Origin: Escherichia coli
Lineage (GTDB): Bacteria; Pseudomonadota; Gammaproteobacteria; Enterobacterales; Enterobacteriaceae
DNA: 64,000 nucleotides
Direction: 5' to 3' (one strand)
Assembly (NCBI RefSeq): GCF_003018235.1
Contig: NZ_CP027437.1
Shown: piece after piece, positions 3,578 through 59,824 of the stretch
How the letters are laid out: each line of letters begins with the position of its first letter
Position numbering within the stretch: position 1 is the stretch's first letter
Position numbers and translations under genes: made by a program
The notes under the pieces: model-generated
What the model saw: the letters and a program-made list of their open reading frames with translations, nothing else
The model's database searches: none
What the model was told of the DNA's origin: nothing

Positions 3578-3783
3578 AAAAAAAAGCACCGCAATTAGGC
3601 GGTGCTACATTAATCACTATGGACAGACAGGGTAAATGTACAGGAAGTGAAAAAAGGTAGCTTTGCTACCATGGTCTGAATCGCAGACCAATTGCAAACA
3701 CAACAACACAACATCACAACCGTAAGCCAAAAGTTCACCAGAACACGCATTCCGATAAAACTTTTCGTTCCGGCTCAGGAAGT
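3578..3783 (-). ncRNA. gcvB: GcvB small regulatory RNA (Hfq-dependent, represses amino-acid transporter mRNAs)
   Basis: The reverse complement of this interval reads ACTTCCTGAGCCGGAACGAAAAGTTTTATCGG...GT-rich stretch TGTGATGTTGTGTTGTTGTGTTTG...terminator hairpin GCACCGCCTAATTGCGGTGC followed by a T-run, matching the gcvB sequence as I remember it; it is divergent from gcvA as expected and 206 nt long. Confidence 0.9.
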
Positions 3784-18853: not shown

Positions 18854-20218
18854 TTACGTGCAGATTTCGTAGCAAGGGATGTAGGCTGAGCCTGGCAACT
18901 TCATACGATGCTGGGCAACAAAACCCTGTAGCAGGTCATCCATACGACGCATAATCTCTTTATCGCCGTTGATTTTATAAGGACCAAACTCTTCAATGGC
19001 GCGAATACCGACTTCTTTTACGTTACCCGCCACAATACCGGAGAACGCACGGCGCAGGTCGGCAGCCAGCACTTCAACGGGTTGATCCGGGTAAAGCTTC
19101 AGATTAGCCATATTCTCGTGAGACGGCTCAAACGGCATTTGCAAATCTGGCGCAATGCGCATTGACCAGTTAAAGCTGTAGGCATCGCCTGTGTCGCGGC
19201 GATTTTCTTTCACCAGCGGCATCGATTTTTTCATCTGACGAGCGACTTCAGCGGCGTCATCAATGATGATGCGGTAATGGCGGCGCGCGTTTTCACCCAA
19301 CGTATGCACGACAAACTCGTCCAGTACGCGGAAGTAGTCGGCGCTCTCTTTCGGGCCGGTGAGGATCAATGGTAAAACCTGATCTTTGTTGGCCGGGTTC
19401 ATTAAAATTCCCAGCAAATACAGCAACTCTTCTGCCGTACCCACACCGCCAGGGAAGATAATGATACCGTGAGCGATACGGACAAACGCTTCCAGACGTT
19501 TTTCGATATCCGGCATGATGATCAATTCGTTGATCAGCGGGTTAGGCGGTTCAGCGGCGATAATCGACGGCTCTGTCATACCAATAAAACGACTGTCTTT
19601 GTAACGCTGCTGTGCGTGTCCGACCGCAGCGCCTTTCATCGGCGCTTCCATCGCTCCCGGACCACAGCCGGTGCAGATATTCAGCTCACGCAGGCCCAGC
19701 TGATTCCCGACGCGACGGGCATACAAATACTCGTTTTCGTTAATTGAGTGCCCGCCCCAGCAGACCACCATATTTGGCGCTTCACCAACATGCAGCGCGC
19801 GAGCGTTACGCAAGATGGAAAAGACCAGGTTAGTGATGTGGACGGAGTTGTCGAGATTCAGGTTGGGAAAACGAACAGTATTATGGATTTGCCCGTAAAC
19901 GAAGAGAATGTCGCGCAGAACCGCGAACAAGTTGGCCTGCAAAGCGCGAATAATTCGCCCATCGACAAAAGCCTCTTCCGGGGGATTAATCAGTTCCAGC
20001 TTTACGCCGCGTTCACGGCGCAAGACGTTAATATCGAAATTTTCAAAACGAGACAGCAATTCTTTGCTGTTATCGGTCAAACTACCGGAGTTCAGTACGG
20101 CAAGTGAACAGTTGCGAAACAGTTGATAGAGGTCGCTGCTGGCGGTGCGTTTAAGCATATCCACTTCCAGCTGCGACAACATATCCATGGAGCCAAGCGG
20201 GCTAATATGTGTAATCAA
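18854..20218 (-). CDS. ppnN: Pyrimidine/purine nucleotide 5'-monophosphate nucleosidase (LOG-family, YgdH)
   Basis: 454-aa ORF with a LOG-family core (PGGxGTxEE motif present as PGGVGTAEE). Confidence 0.9.
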
Positions 20219-20329
20219 GAAAAACTCCTTATGGGACGAATATCGTCATTCCCTTTGATTACAATAGCCCTGCCTGATGACCTTTCACAACCTTCTGCGT
20301 GAATCCAGCACGCAAAATTGAGAAAAAAT

Positions 20330-21178
20330 TTATTGCCGAACCAGTCTTGTGGTCGATGGGACAAAATCGCTATTACTGCGCCACGGGTTAATGTCCAGAC
20401 CGCCACGACGGGTATAACGTGCGTAAACGCTCAATTTCTCTGGCTGGCAGAAGCGTAACAGGTCATTAAAGATGCGTTCCACGCACTGTTCGTGGAACTC
20501 GTTGTGATGACGGAAAGAAACCAGGTAACGCAGCAGTTTTTCTCTGTCAATTTGGCGTCCACGATACTGAATTTGGATCGATCCCCAATCTGGTTGATGG
20601 GTGATCAGGCAATTTGATTTCAGCAGGTGGCTGACGAGCGTCTCTTCTACTACTTTTTCGCCACTGGTGGCATTCTCCAGATAGTCAGTAGTGAATTCAT
20701 AGTTATCGATAGTGATATCCTGGTCATCAATGCAAGTGCCATTGAAATGACCTATCGGTTGGCCTTCCAGATCATCAAGACGATATAACGCCACGCTAAC
20801 CTTACCCTGAGCGCAAGTGCTTAAGTCGCGCTCCAGCGTCTGGCGCACCTCATCCCAGTTATTAAAACGCGTCTGGTTAAAACTGTTGAGATAGAGCTTA
20901 AAACTCTTCGACTCAATCAGATTTGCGCTGGTGTAATCAAGTGCAACATGACCGACGGCGACCTGCGGCAAACCTTTCGCATTCAGCCAGGAAAGTTCAT
21001 ACAGCGTCCAGATATCCGTACCGTGAAAAGGCAGGTTATCCGCTTTCAGACCCAGCGGATCGCGATTCAGACTACGTGGAACGCCTTGCAGTAGGCTGGC
21101 GTCATAGGTATCCCGGTAATCGGTTGATTTTCCAAGAGTCAGGCCCGCAAGTGCCTGATGGTTTGCATAAGAAGACAT
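20330..21178 (-). CDS. queF: NADPH-dependent 7-cyano-7-deazaguanine (preQ0) reductase
   Basis: 282-aa ORF of the two-domain QueF type. Confidence 0.92.
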
Positions 21179-21245
21179 GTTTCACCGTCATAAACCAGAT
21201 AAACTAAACGACAAGTGTATCTGGTTTAAGTGAAGAGAGAAATTA

Positions 21246-21791
21246 GTGGACGATTTGACCGCACAAGCCCTGAAAGATTTTACTGCACGCTACTGCGATG
21301 CGTGGAATGAAGAGCATAAAAGCTGGCCGTTGAGTGAGGAACTGTACGGCGTTCCTTCACCGTGCATTATTTCAACCACCGAAGACGCCGTATACTGGCA
21401 ACCCCAGCCGTTTACCGGGGAACAAAATGTAAACGCGGTTGAACGCGCTTTTGATATTGTGATACAACCCACAATTCATACCTTTTATACGACTCAGTTT
21501 GCCGGGGATATGCACGCGCAGTTTGGCGATATTAAACTGACATTGCTGCAAACCTGGAGTGAAGACGACTTCCGTCGGGTGCAGGAAAATCTGATTGGTC
21601 ATCTGGTGACTCAGAAAAGGCTAAAACTGCCGCCCACGCTATTTATCGCGACGCTGGAAGAAGAGTTAGAGGTGATCTCGGTGTGTAATCTCTCCGGTGA
21701 AGTGTGCAAAGAGACGCTGGGAACACGTAAACGGACGCATTTAGCCTCAAATCTTGCGGAATTCCTTAATCAACTTAAGCCTCTTCTGTAA
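21246..21791 (+). CDS. syd: SecY-interacting protein Syd
   Basis: 181-aa ORF starting at GTG 21246. Confidence 0.9.
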
Positions 21792-21810
21792 TCCAAATAC
21801 CCCATCTGGT

Positions 21811-21828
21811 TGTGAGAGATCTCTTACA
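21811..21828. promoter_or_regulatory. UvrY (BarA/UvrY two-component response regulator) binding palindrome upstream of csrB
   Basis: Perfect 18-bp inverted repeat TGTGAGAGATCTCTTACA about 175 bp upstream of the csrB start; this is the type of site described for UvrY/SirA at csrB. Confidence 0.6.
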
Positions 21829-22001
21829 GACTCTGTAGGAGATCGCCAGGAAATAAGCGAATACTTAAAAAGATAAGAATCGTTATTTTCATTTAAAATC
21901 AATATATTGCTTGTCAATTCTTAACTTTCATATGAAATTTTCCTTAAGGCATTGTCTGTAAGCGCCTTGTAAGACTTCGCGAAAAAGACGATTCTATCTT
22001 C

Positions 22002-22367
22002 GTCGACAGGGAGTCAGACAACGAAGTGAACATCAGGATGATGACACTTCTGAAGGACACACCAGGATGGTGTTTCAGGGAAAGGCTTCTGGATGAAGCG
22101 AAGAGGATGACGCAGGACGCGTTAAAGGACACCTCCAGGATGGAGAATGAGAACCGGTCAGGATGATTCGGTGGGTCAGGAAGGCTAGGGACACTTCAGG
22201 ATGAAGTATCACATCGGGGTGGTGTGAGCAGGAAGCAATAGTTCAGGATGAACGATTGGCCGCAAGGCCAGAGGAAAAGTTGTCAAGGATGAGCAGGGAG
22301 CAACAAAAGTAGCTGGAATGCTGCGAAACGAACCGGGAGCACTGTGAATACAGTGCTCCCTTTTTTT
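22002..22367 (+). ncRNA. csrB: CsrB regulatory RNA (CsrA-sequestering sRNA)
   Basis: About 365 nt with no long ORF, carrying roughly twenty GGA-containing motifs (I count about 22 by eye, many as CAGGATG), ending in hairpin GGGAGCACTG-TGAATA-CAGTGCTCCC plus T7. The 5' end is placed from my recollection of the csrB sequence. Confidence 0.88.
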
Positions 22368-22412
22368 ATTCCTGCTATCCTTCGCGGCAGTTTTTCTTAT
22401 TGAGGTTGCTTT

Positions 22413-22742
22413 ATGACCACTCATGACCGCGTTCGTCTCCAGCTGCAGGCGCTTGAAGCATTACTGCGTGAACATCAGCACTGGCAAAACGATGAACCCC
22501 AGCCGCATCAATTTAACAGTACCCAACCGTTCTTTATGGACACCATGGAACCACTGGAGTGGTTGCAGTGGGTGCTGATCCCGCGAATGCACGATTTGTT
22601 AGATAACAACCAGCCGTTACCGGGCGCTTTTGCCGTCGCACCCTATTATGAAATGGCGCTGGCGACGGACCACCCGCAACGCGCGCTTATTCTGGCTGAG
22701 CTGGAAAAACTGGATGCTCTTTTTGCGGATGATGCGAGCTAA
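22413..22742 (+). CDS. yqcC: DUF446 family protein
   Basis: 109-aa ORF directly upstream of and coupled to truC. Confidence 0.85.
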   Translation: MTTHDRVRLQLQALEALLREHQHWQNDEPQPHQFNSTQPFFMDTMEPLEWLQWVLIPRMHDLLDNNQPLPGAFAVAPYYEMALATDHPQRALILAELEKLDALFADDAS

Positions 22743-23524
22743 TGCTGGAAATACTCTATCAGGATGAATGGCTGGTTGCGGTAAATAAACCCTCCGGCTG
22801 GCTGGTTCACCGCAGCTGGATGGATCGCGACGAGAAAGTAGTGGTCATGCAAACCGTGCGTGACCAGATAGGCCAGCATGTGTTTACTGCTCATCGTCTG
22901 GACCGACCAACTTCTGGTGTGTTGTTGATGGGATTATCCAGCGAGGCCGGACGGCTGCTGGCACAACAGTTTGAACAGCACCAAATCCAGAAACGTTACC
23001 ATGCGATTGTGCGCGGCTGGTTGATGGAAGAAGCAGTTCTGGATTATCCACTGGTGGAAGAACTGGACAAAATCGCTGATAAATTTGCCCGCGAAGATAA
23101 AGGCCCACAGCCAGCAGTGACGCATTATCGCGGTCTGGCGACCGTAGAAATGCCGGTAGCGACCGGACGTTACCCGACCACGCGCTACGGCCTGGTGGAA
23201 CTGGAGCCGAAAACCGGACGTAAGCACCAGCTCCGTCGCCATCTTGCCCATTTGCGCCACCCGATTATTGGCGACAGCAAACATGGTGATTTACGCCAGA
23301 ATCGCAGCGGTGCTGAACATTTTGGCCTTCAGCGGTTAATGCTGCATGCCAGTCAGTTGTCATTGACGCATCCTTTTACTGGCGAGCCGCTGACTATTCA
23401 CGCGGGCCTGGACGACACCTGGATGCAGGCGTTATCACAATTTGGCTGGCGGGGTCTGCTTCCTGAAAATGAAAGGGTTGAGTTCAGTGCGCCATCGGGT
23501 CAGGATGGAGAGATAAGTTCCTAA
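22742..23524 (+). CDS. truC: tRNA pseudouridine(65) synthase
   Basis: 260-aa ORF, RluA family (motif [12 protein letters not shown]). Confidence 0.9.
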
Positions 23525-23541
23525 TCCAGGGAGAAAACGGT

Positions 23542-23991
23542 ATGGCGGAAATTGGTATTTTTGTCGGCACTATGTACGGAAATTCGCTGTTAGTGGCGGA
23601 AGAAGCGGAAGCAATTCTGACCGCGCAGGGCCACAAAGCAACGGTATTTGAAGATCCTGAATTAAGCGACTGGCTGCCCTATCAGGATAAGTATGTTCTG
23701 GTGGTTACGTCCACGACCGGGCAGGGCGACCTTCCTGATAGCATTGTGCCGCTCTTTCAGGGAATCAAAGATACCCTGGGCTTCCAGCCGAATCTGCGTT
23801 ATGGCGTGATTGCGCTCGGCGACAGTAGTTATGTGAATTTCTGCAATGGCGGCAAACAGTTCGATGCCTTGTTGCAGGAACAGAGCGCTCAGCGGGTTGG
23901 CGAAATGCTGTTGATTGACGCCAGTGAGAACCCGGAACCGGAAACGGAATCAAATCCGTGGGTCGAACATTGGGGCACGCTGTTGTCCTGA
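23542..23991 (+). CDS. yqcA: Flavodoxin-like protein
   Basis: 149-aa ORF with a flavodoxin fold signature ([11 protein letters not shown]). Confidence 0.88.
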
Positions 23992-24044
23992 TATGTTCAG
24001 CGAGCGGTAAATGCCGTTTTAGCGGTGCTGAATCGAATCTTTTC

Positions 24045-57507: not shown

Positions 57508-58242
57508 ATGTCCAAACTCGATCTAAACGCCCTGAACGAACTGCCGAAGGTAGATCGCATTCTGGCGCTGGCAGAAACTAACGCCGAACTGGAAAAACTG
57601 GATGCTGAAGGCCGCGTTGCCTGGGCGCTGGATAATCTGCCCGGTGAATATGTACTTTCTTCCAGTTTCGGCATTCAGGCGGCGGTGAGCCTGCATCTGG
57701 TGAATCAGATTCACCCGGATATCCCGGTGATCCTGACCGATACGGGTTATCTGTTCCCGGAAACCTACCGCTTTATTGACGAGTTAACGGACAAACTCAA
57801 GCTCAACCTGAAAGTGTACCGCGCTACCGAAAGCGCCGCCTGGCAGGAAGCGCGCTACGGCAAACTGTGGGAGCAGGGTGTTGAAGGCATTGAAAAGTAC
57901 AATGACATCAACAAAGTCGAACCGATGAACCGGGCGCTGAAAGAACTGAATGCGCAAACGTGGTTTGCTGGCCTGCGCCGCGAACAATCCGGCAGTCGCG
58001 CCAATTTACCGGTGCTGGCAATTCAGCGTGGCGTATTTAAAGTGCTGCCGATTATCGACTGGGATAACCGAACGATATATCAGTATCTGCAAAAACATGG
58101 CCTGAAATATCACCCATTATGGGACGAAGGATATTTATCGGTCGGTGATACCCATACAACCCGTAAATGGGAACCCGGCATGGCGGAAGAAGAAACGCGT
58201 TTCTTTGGCTTAAAAAGAGAATGTGGTTTACACGAAGGGTAA
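57508..58242 (+). CDS. cysH: Phosphoadenosine phosphosulfate (PAPS) reductase
   Basis: Track ORF extends upstream through the REP; start placed at ATG 57508 ([14 protein letters not shown]...), 244 aa. Confidence 0.92.
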
Positions 58243-58260
58243 ATGTTATCCGGATAAATT

Positions 58261-58298
58261 AAACGCCTCTGTCAGAAATGATGGGGGCGTTTTTATTT
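58261..58298 (+). terminator. Probable cysH terminator
   Basis: AAACGCC...GGCGTTT stem followed by TTATTTT, about 20 bp after the cysH stop; the stem is short and the loop long, so this is tentative. Confidence 0.4.
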
Positions 58299-58507
58299 TG
58301 CGAGCAGCATTCCTGATTTTAAACGTGAACGCCGCTGGAAGAATCAACAGGTATAGAATGGTGTCGGGTGCTTGAGGCTGTCTGGCGTTAAGCATTCGCG
58401 AGGTTCCAGATGGACAAAAGCCCCAGGCGATATTTCTATCAACCTGAGGCCAGCGTTCGAACCCAAACAATTCGAATGTTAGTCTCTTCTTTGCAGGGAG
58501 GCAAGAC

Positions 58508-58660
58508 ATGCTGACAAAATATGCCCTTGTGGCAATCATAGTGCTGTGTTTTACAGTACTGGGATTCACGCTGATGGTAGGCGACTCGTTGTGTGAGTTG
58601 AGTATCAGAGAACGTGGTATGGAGTTTAAGGCAGTTCTCGCTTACGAATCGAAGAAGTAG
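58508..58660 (+). CDS. hokX: Hok-family type I toxin (small membrane-depolarising peptide), positionally the hokX/sokX locus
   Basis: 50-codon ORF absent from the ORF track (under 60 aa): [50 protein letters not shown], with a single TM helix, the Hok signature DSLCE and C-terminal AYES; Shine-Dalgarno GGAGG 6 nt upstream. The symbol is inferred from position next to cysH. Confidence 0.8.
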
Positions 58661-58786
58661 CCACCACGCGGGGGTAAAACCCCGCGTACTGAATTGTTAA
58701 AGTTTGGCCTCCTGCACCCCTTTTTTATACTCTGTTTCTGGTGGCATTGATTTCCTGCAGGCAAGGGAGTAATCATTTCAAACCCA

Positions 58787-59824
58787 TCAAGACGCCTTCG
58801 CCAGCTCCTTCACCAGCGGTAGCATTATCCGCATAACATCACGGCAGCGACGTTCTATTCTTCCTGGAAGTGCCTTATCAATATGTTGTTGATTATCCAG
58901 TCTTACGTCATGCCAGCTATTTCCCGCAGGGAATGCAGCTGTTTTTGCGCGTTGCTGATAACCATCCTTATTCCCAAGATTCCAATTTGTTGCTTCTACC
59001 GAAAGTACGGCAATACCGGCTTTGTCGAAAACTTCGGCGTCATTACAACAGCCAGTACCCTTCGGATAATTTTTATTCAAACCCGGATTGGTCGTTGCGG
59101 CAATTCCATGACTACGCGCAATTGCCAGCGCCCTGTCGCGCGTTAATTTCCTTACTGCTTCAGGGGTTTTTACGCCGCTGTTGAAATACAATTTATCGCC
59201 AACAATTAAGTTATCGAGATTAATCACCAGCAGCGTATTTTTCTTTTCGGTGTCACTCATCCGCTTGAGTAAATTCTCAGCACCTAATTTCCCTTCCTCT
59301 TCACCACTGGTCGCCACAAATCGAATACCATACTCGGTAGGCGTATTTTTCAGGCGTTCTGCCAATTCCAGCATGACACCTAAACCTGCAGCGTTATCAT
59401 CCATTCCTTGTAACGTCAGTCCGCCGAGATTGGCATCGGCGTCAGCATCGCTCAGCGGGGCGTAAGTATCCAGATGCGCCATAATGATGATCTGCTGCGG
59501 CGCTTTGCCTTCATGAGCGGCAATCACCGTACTTCCCGTCACGTTATGCCAGCTCTTGCGATTATCGCGGGCGGTATAAATATACCGACTATTAAATGTC
59601 CGAATATCACTGCGATAACCCATTTGCTGAAACTGTTGGCGAATATAATCGGCAGATAACATTTCTGCTGGAGTTCCGGTCATGCGTCCCGGAAAGAAAG
59701 TAGCAATATGTCGTGCCTGAGTATTAGCAAAATCGCCAGGTTTAGATGACGAGGCGTGTACGGGGAGAATAAAGCATACGCCGAGCGCCAGGGCAGCGGT
59801 ACGGTGGCGCAATGCGGAAAACAT
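58787..59824 (-). CDS. iap: Alkaline phosphatase isozyme conversion aminopeptidase (M28 family)
   Basis: 345-aa ORF with signal peptide. Confidence 0.9.
   Translation of the reverse strand: MFSALRHRTAALALGVCFILPVHASSSKPGDFANTQARHIATFFPGRMTGTPAEMLSADYIRQQFQQMGYRSDIRTFNSRYIYTARDNRKSWHNVTGSTVIAAHEGKAPQQIIIMAHLDTYAPLSDADADANLGGLTLQGMDDNAAGLGVMLELAERLKNTPTEYGIRFVATSGEEEGKLGAENLLKRMSDTEKKNTLLVINLDNLIVGDKLYFNSGVKTPEAVRKLTRDRALAIARSHGIAATTNPGLNKNYPKGTGCCNDAEVFDKAGIAVLSVEATNWNLGNKDGYQQRAKTAAFPAGNSWHDVRLDNQQHIDKALPGRIERRCRDVMRIMLPLVKELAKAS

Follow-up and report, generated by a model that had tools for sequence, protein, structure and literature searches.

Hok/sok loci, a family of type I toxin-antitoxin systems, have been described between cysH and iap on the Escherichia coli chromosome. 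A toxin-antitoxin survey of adherent-invasive E. coli described the hok gene between cysH and iap as homologous to the hokX gene of E. coli B (PMC7232551); among 237 uropathogenic strains, 90% carry hok together with sokX beside cysH, and the remainder have sokX alone, in a K-12-like arrangement (PMC12736100); and Almendros et al. described hok/sok as a module defining the CRISPR-I arrangements, found in every strain other than those with the E2 cas variant (PMC3903273). In a 2026 preprint comparing 1,264 Hok peptides, the hokX peptide group shares a 60%-identity cluster (cluster 46) with HokE. Here we analysed a stretch of 64,000 nucleotides of E. coli contig NZ_CP027437.1 (assembly GCF_003018235.1), referred to below as the window, in which an initial annotation had placed a Hok-family locus at 58410-58690. 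That recognition was correct, with the features lying where they had been placed, but the interval was too short at both ends, the unit extending over approximately 58354-58727. We conclude with high confidence that 58354-58727 represents an intact copy of the known chromosomal hokX/sokX locus, a close paralogue of hokE/sokE. The locus is ordinary and already known, and the exact peptide encoded in the window is entry 991 of the preprint's alignment.

The genes cysJIH lie upstream and iap downstream of the locus, and in this strain the order is directly cysH-hokX-iap, with no type I-E CRISPR-Cas system in between; this is the location of the hokX/sokX group, which is found directly downstream of cysH and on the cysH side of iap or of CRISPR-Cas I-E. 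A search with positions 58240-58790 gave a match in 5,425 of the 5,426 complete RefSeq E. coli genomes, and at least 80% of this segment was covered in 4,141 of them, where the feature is called "Hok/Gef family protein" and, according to RefSeq, has cysH on one side and iap or cas3 on the other. At best the locus matched with 98.4% identity, but a source other than E. coli was rejected, since positions 20000-24000 of the window are 99.9% identical to several complete E. coli genomes. In K-12 MG1655, sokX (b4701) is annotated at the same site, between cysH and cas3. The toxin gene had been described initially as missing from the track of open reading frames (ORFs); it is absent there, but it is annotated in current RefSeq genomes.

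The toxin gene, hokX, extends on the plus strand from the ATG at 58508 to the TAG at 58660 and encodes a predicted membrane toxin of 50 amino acids (aa). The peptide matched the Pfam family HOK_GEF (PF01848) over the whole model (positions 1-42 of 42) with an E value of 3.5e-11; together with the Rfam match of 111.1 bits described below, this is far beyond chance. The NCBIfam HokA and Hok-family models also matched the peptide, with scores under the curated cut-offs. The peptide, of about 50 aa, has the layout of the family, with one N-terminal hydrophobic helix, DSLCE and AYES, as had been recognised from the start. When it was aligned with HokE, HokC, HokD, HokB, Hok of R1, SrnB and PndA, an alignment that had been suggested as a check, identities of 78% to HokE, 42% to Hok of R1 and 32% to HokB were obtained. 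The residues M1, C14, T16, L28, C29, E30 and E39 are all present, corresponding to the seven residues kept in more than 80% of the 1,264 Hok peptides (M1, C16, T18, L30, C31, E32 and E41 in the logo numbering).

For comparative analyses, one genome per species was scanned, 56 related loci were recovered, and 51 full-length, non-identical mRNA copies were aligned; the conservation figures for 51 loci given below refer to this alignment. The strong Shine-Dalgarno (SD) sequence claimed for the gene was found as GGAGG at 58497-58501 (+), 6 nt before the ATG; its GAGG core is invariant in the alignment, and a strong hok SD is kept in all but one of the 51 loci. The hokX peptide is under purifying selection, the ORF being intact in 51 of 51 loci and the median pairwise ratio of nonsynonymous to synonymous divergence (dN/dS) being 0.14 (1,253 pairs with dS >0.1). 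In the 2026 preprint, a one-residue variant of the peptide, 46_982 (F15C), was cloned for toxicity testing and is not among the non-toxic constructs, which comprise only three of 45 (19_179, 60_1482 and 69_1540). A near-identical peptide has been reported as toxic, and the allele in the window would probably be toxic as well.

On the opposite strand, an ORF of 107 aa (58246-58569) exceeds all others in the interval in length. For this reason it might be taken for the real gene, the 50-codon ORF then being a chance ORF in a spacer, but this interpretation is next to impossible, since both the Pfam and the Rfam matches lie on the plus strand, while the 107-aa ORF has no NCBIfam family match and no RefSeq annotation. 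In addition, nine relatives were examined, of which five have the ORF frameshifted, and its length varies from 73 to 110 aa among close relatives. As a real gene it is refuted by these matches and by its lack of conservation, in agreement with the initial annotation, which had considered it probably spurious.

The leader of hokX likewise belongs to the hok/sok family. Rfam family RF01794 ("sok") matched 58366-58523 (+) over its full length (1-157) with 111.1 bits, against a gathering score of 59 and with E=2e-24 for the 64-kb window. This was one of three RNA matches at the gathering level in the window, the other two being CsrB (22011-22370, +) and GcvB (3578-3783, -), full-length matches that represent ordinary E. 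coli features. Although RF01794 is named 'sok antitoxin', it fits the plus strand, i.e. the 157-nt leader of the hok mRNA, whereas the real SokX is a 59-nt transcript of the opposite strand; the family name and strand could thus mislead automated annotation. We place the full-length hokX mRNA at 58366-58727 (+), the probable 5' end being the start of the Rfam match and the probable 3' end the position up to which E. coli strains with cas3 retain homology to the locus. Conservation among the 51 loci spans the region from GGGTGC to GCACCC. A probable -10 box, TAGAAT (58354-58359, +), is located 6 nt upstream of the conserved 5' end, with no good -35 sequence; almost all homologous loci have a TAnnAT box whose spacing from GGGTGC is nearly constant. 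The predicted fold of the full-length mRNA was more stable than that of shuffled sequences (z=-3.5).

Using the element definitions of plasmid R1 (PMC9841398), we mapped on the plus strand the elements of the RNA switch that governs hok mRNAs. At the 5' end of the mRNA, tac (GGGTGCTTGAGGC, 58366-58378), whose residues G1 to C6 are invariant in the 51 loci, can pair with either fbi or ucb. The ucb or anti-SD element, AAGCCCC (58418-58424), is the partner of tac in the open form and of the GAGGC of the mok SD in the closed form. It is followed by the Sok-target hairpin (58425-58445), which is part of the Rfam consensus structure, is 86% paired in the alignment with one covarying pair, and has as its complement the terminator stem of SokX. 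The equivalent of the mok SD, GAGGC (58446-58450), is kept across the 51 loci with few exceptions, and dcb, GTCTC (58482-58486), pairs with it in the open form, constituting the outer part of a helix, 58446-58486, that is 88.5% paired and has six pairs changed on both sides. Beyond the toxin gene, the stem-loop formed by ACGCGGGG and CCCCGCGT (58666-58687) is 97.3% paired with two covarying pairs, and the fold-back inhibitory element, fbi (GCCTCCTGCACCCC, 58707-58720), complementary to tac by 6+5 bp around a 2x2 internal loop, is directly followed by a T-run (58721-58726). The GC hairpin at 58666-58687 had been interpreted initially as the fold-back element; the hairpin is present, but it is the 3' stem-loop, with fbi situated about 20 nt downstream, beyond the interval first given. 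By analogy with R1, this stem-loop would be expected to form the protective end of the processed mRNA.

The alternative pairings of these elements are conserved and partly covarying. Of the 13 pairs by which tac and fbi close the 5' and 3' ends over long range, three are changed on both sides; in the 51 loci this helix is 82.9% paired, compared to 32-54% when the partner was slid by one to three columns. The helix containing tac/ucb is 91.3% paired, and the closed-form stem of ucb and mok SD, 84.7%; tac/ucb, ucb/mok-SD and mok-SD/dcb constitute mutually exclusive helices. Taken together, the open-form helices (tac/ucb with the inner helix, the Sok-target hairpin, mok-SD/dcb and the 3' stem-loop) are 90.6% paired. 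Changes on both sides affect 18 pairs and 123 cells of the alignment, whereas shuffled alignments averaged 38.5, and in 500 shuffles none of the five measures was reached. The locus thus possesses every structural element of a hok/sok system. In addition, the hok SD and start region (58482-58512) is complementary to the 3' end of the coding sequence (CDS; 58630-58661), with 93% of the cells paired in the 51 loci but no covariation; because the sequence hardly varies, covariation gives no evidence for or against this pairing. The last ten or so hok codons are almost invariant at the nucleotide level, synonymous positions included, which suggests a constraint at the RNA level, such as masking of the SD or an editing hairpin.

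An antisense Sok-like RNA had been expected on the minus strand across the leader, and we located it at 58468 to 58410 (59 nt), where the sequence is 100% identical to the sokX non-coding RNA of MG1655 (b4701). SokX, the antitoxin, is predicted to fold as a strong hairpin followed by the U-rich tail CUUUUGUCCAU (z=-3.3). Its promoter (58476-58504, -) consists of a -35 sequence, TTGCCT (58504-58499), which overlaps the hok SD, a spacer of 17 nt, and a -10 sequence, TAACAT (58481-58476), separated by 7 nt from the 5' end annotated at 58468. AGGCAA, complementary to the -35 sequence, is invariant in 51 of 51 loci, and the -10 sequence keeps TAnnAT in all of them. Our scan for consensus promoters and terminators reported neither a hok nor a Sok promoter, detecting only two chance-level sites on the plus strand and the cysH terminator; the Sok promoter was passed over because it matches the consensus at 8 of 12 positions, below the threshold of 9 of 12, and its assignment therefore rests on conservation in the alignment and on the annotated K-12 5' end. 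Thus, the minus-strand sigma70 promoter and short terminated RNA that the initial annotation had proposed to look for are both represented at the sequence level, and SokX has the properties of an antisense RNA of this family, namely a promoter of its own, a hairpin and U-tail terminator, and complementarity to the leader of the hok mRNA. In enterohaemorrhagic E. coli, RNA sequencing gave reads over sok_15/sokX.

By homology with hok/sok of plasmid R1, a mechanism may be proposed for the whole locus. A weak promoter would produce the hokX mRNA of about 360 nt (58366-58727), in which pairing of tac at the 5' end with fbi at the 3' end would keep the molecule closed and untranslatable. Slow trimming of the 3' end up to the stem-loop at 58666-58687 would remove fbi, allowing tac to pair with ucb, upon which the leader would open and expose the Sok-target hairpin. 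SokX, transcribed from a stronger antisense promoter overlapping the hok SD, would pair with 58410-58468, and the duplex would lead to cleavage, probably by RNase III, and to a block of translation in the leader. If SokX were depleted, the 50-aa Hok would be made and inserted into the inner membrane, where it would collapse the membrane potential.

In R1, the mok start lies 7 nt behind the mok SD within the region covered by Sok, translation of mok up to the hok SD is needed for Hok to be made, and Hok is no longer translated when the mok start codon is mutated (PMC9841398). In the window, we found no ATG, GTG or TTG 5-9 nt downstream of the mok-SD GAGG (58446-58449), and the mok reading frame is accordingly lacking: the triplet at 58457-58459 is TCG, where the homologues in Kluyvera and Klebsiella have ATG behind GAGG. 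An ATG 7 nt behind the mok SD is also present in Enterobacter relatives, while TCG or CCG occupies this position in the hokX group of E. coli. Among eight loci of Kluyvera, Klebsiella and Enterobacter, this ATG is in frame with hok in six, giving a 17-codon extension, and opens a frame stopping on the hok start in two. Our literature search for mokE, mokX, mokA and mokB retrieved only monacolin genes of Monascus.

Translational coupling analogous to mok had been suggested by the initial annotation for a 34-codon upstream ORF (58410-58514, +). This ORF does exist, is preceded by an SD, GAGG (58400-58403), and ends in a TGA overlapping the hok ATG (ATGCTGA). However, it is open only in the window, in AST215, in E. 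coli B and in the K-12 remnant. Of the 11 other intact hokX loci examined, nine have a shortened version of 6-23 codons: the frame closes after 18 codons in O157:H7, E69, E. whittamii, two further Escherichia species and a pair of Pseudocitrobacter genomes, while P. vendiensis retains 23 codons and SCPM-O-B-8794 retains 6. It is therefore not a conserved mok. Its start, ATG 58410, is confined to the hokX group of Escherichia and Pseudocitrobacter, and the ATGCTGA overlap is explained by conserved Met-Leu-Thr codons. Nested within it, a 12-codon ORF (58476-58514, +), starting at ATG 58476 and sharing the same TGA over the hok ATG, is conserved and ends with TGA or TAA over the hok start. This ORF begins outside the Sok duplex and lacks an SD, and its ATG is the complement of the Sok -10 sequence, so that its retention can be explained differently. 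In loci of the hokE type, this upstream ATG is in frame with hok. Coupling of hok through a substitute upstream ORF is thus possible but unproven.

Several of these observations weigh against the locus being a complete and working hok/sok system. The canonical mok start is absent and the 34-codon ORF that might replace it is not conserved; as R1 needs translation of mok, a locus missing it may make little or no toxin. Most K-12 hok loci other than hokB have been reported as inactive. Moreover, the unconstrained minimum free energy (MFE) structure of the mRNA does not contain tac/fbi, the 3' end pairing with the hok SD region instead. With regard to the last point, enforcing tac/fbi gave -129.3 kcal/mol compared to -130.2 kcal/mol for the MFE, a cost of 0.9 kcal/mol, and the MFE alternative was not adopted, being 66.5% paired in the 51 loci as opposed to 82.9% for tac/fbi. 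The other points could be accommodated if hokX/sokX were structurally conserved but translationally silent, both RNAs being made and Hok remaining untranslated, so that the locus would be harmless or a relic at the RNA level. Loss of the mok start, truncation of its replacement, the effect of mok start mutations in R1 and the described inactivation of the K-12 loci would all fit, and a common natural allele, in which 5 nt spanning the hok SD and the -35 sequence of Sok are deleted, suggests that loss of function is tolerated. Nevertheless, we consider a silent locus unlikely, because the purifying selection and the 51 intact ORFs include loci without a canonical mok ATG, the strong hok SD is retained almost throughout, the 12-codon ORF ending on the hok start is conserved, and every switching helix is maintained. 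Since the canonical start has been lost while selection on the toxin and all the switching helices have been kept, it is conceivable, albeit with a low probability, that the hokX lineage controls Hok translation without a classical mok, via the 12-codon ORF or masking of the SD by the 3' end of the CDS, in which case SokX would mainly trigger decay of the mRNA and not prevent initiation at mok. The coupling of hok translation in hokX/hokE-type loci lacking a canonical mok start is of interest to specialists; beyond annotation, the locus has little significance.

TACG, in the loop of a hairpin resembling that of tRNA-Arg2, is the recognition motif of TadA. We noticed a TACG at the codon for Tyr46 (58643-58646, +), a candidate site at which A-to-I editing of A58644 would convert Tyr46 into Cys. 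Codon 46 and the following codon read TAC-GAA in 49 of the 51 loci, and in the other two codon 46 is TGC (Cys) in the genome itself. The local hairpin at this position is predicted to be weak, with a 9-nt loop (z=-1.2). In hokE, the closest paralogue, 40% editing has been reported at the equivalent position (PMC12214031). With the motif retained at Tyr46 and editing reported in hokE, AYES may be recoded in part to ACES.

The position of the locus where other strains carry CRISPR-Cas had been regarded initially as worthy of note. Cas genes are indeed found there in other strains, with cas3 directly following hokX in many E. coli strains, but this has been described already (PMC3903273, PMC12736100) and is not a new clue. 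The direct hokX-iap junction without cas genes was present in 1,129 of the 5,426 E. coli genomes, and the 3' region of hokX is retained in 4,219; the order cysH-hok-iap without cas also occurs in Pseudocitrobacter, Kluyvera and Lelliottia. From these cas-free arrangements in E. coli and other genera, hokX is therefore the older resident, with CRISPR-Cas I-E, where present, representing an insert between hokX and iap. The proximity of cas3, and a K-12 breakpoint lying exactly at the hok ATG, might be taken to indicate that hokX is functionally tied to the neighbouring CRISPR-Cas I-E, for instance as an addiction module that keeps the cas genes stable or as a component of a defence island. Such a tie is very improbable, given the same cas-free arrangements, the strains with the E2 cas variant, which have no hok/sok (PMC3903273), and a genome-wide survey in which hok loci were not enriched near defence systems (12% versus 9.4% expected by chance). 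No CRISPR repeats or other direct repeats were found from hokX to the end of the window, and no tRNA genes were found in the window.

The site also showed considerable allelic variation. In a common natural E. coli allele (product P0011, with 469 blocks in the collection index), deletion of 5 nt changes GGGAGGCAAGAC to GGGAGAC (window positions 58499-58503). The Sok -35 sequence and the hok SD core are thereby lost, and the 34-codon ORF is fused in frame to hok, with an 81-aa product; the allele adjoins cas3 in the copies examined. The cysH gene of the window (57508-58242) is only 96-97.4% identical to those of the other E. coli compared, while positions 20000-24000 are 99.9% identical to some strains, and the flank of the CRISPR-I region appears, from these sequence comparisons, to be a recombination mosaic. 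In Pseudocitrobacter, cysH is 91-96% and the hokX mRNA region 93-94% identical to the window, with an identical Hok peptide, but iap is only about 73% identical, which suggests transfer between genera, or recombination, of the cysH-hokX segment. Two copies of the hok mRNA, 500-1,200 bp apart, were observed in Klebsiella spallanzanii, Escherichia sp. MOD1-EC7003, E. whittamii and Enterobacter sp.; tandem hok 'islets' of the same kind have been described in the 2026 Hok survey. Upstream of the locus, cysH ends with a strong intrinsic terminator (58261-58292, +; a 14-bp stem followed by TTATTTT), and its hairpin accounts for the weak Rfam matches to PyrR, ctRNA_p42d and Spot 42 (58198-58301), which were far below thresholds and were rejected. 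For annotation, the correct labels are hokX for the toxin, sokX for the antitoxin RNA and hokX mRNA for the transcript, and the 107-aa antisense ORF should be dropped. The intact, truncated, 5-nt-deleted and insertion sequence (IS)-disrupted alleles of hokX distinguish lineages and provide a useful marker for the cysH-iap or CRISPR-I region.

Comparison with the named systems shows that the locus of the window is a member of the orthologous group hokX/sokX of E. coli, occupying the same site directly downstream of cysH. In K-12, the leader is 100% identical from 58366 through 58510, where the hok ATG ends, as is sokX, but the toxin gene has been lost, homology stopping at 58510 and the upstream region of cas3 then following. 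The HokX peptide of E. coli B is identical to that of the window and the O157:H7 protein is 98% identical. In E. coli B, homology ends within the 3' stem-loop, at 58682, and an IS4-like element of the IS421 family, present from 58683 onward, removes fbi and is followed by a CRISPR array and then iap; this agrees with the literature, according to which an insertion element inactivates hokX in E. coli B. Compared to these two strains, the copy in the window is complete and abuts iap, with neither a CRISPR array nor cas genes in between.

The next closest system is hokE/sokE of K-12, which is located at a different chromosomal site from hokX. Its peptide is 78% identical, belongs to the same cluster 46 and also has TAC-GAA at codon 46, and its mRNA aligns with that of hokX over the full length. 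In hokE-type loci of other Escherichia species, the distance from SD to ATG is longer by three nucleotides, which brings the upstream ATG into the hok frame, and hokE of K-12 has been reported to be disrupted by an insertion element. The chromosomal hokB/sokB of E. coli also consists of a Hok protein and a Sok antisense RNA, with peptide identity of 32% to HokX; the TadA-dependent edited Tyr of HokB is at position 29, whereas position 29 of HokX is already Cys and its candidate site is Tyr46. With hok/mok/sok of R1, hokX/sokX shares the toxin family, the antisense RNA to the leader, the pairings tac/fbi, tac/ucb, mok-SD/ucb and mok-SD/dcb, the 3' stem-loop, and a Sok promoter overlapping the dcb and hok-SD region, but peptide identity is only 42%. 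R1 has a 70-codon mok that overlaps hok and starts behind the mok SD, while hokX has neither, its upstream ORFs ending at the hok start. Since hokX is chromosomal and hok of R1 is plasmid-borne, post-segregational killing is not an obvious role for hokX.

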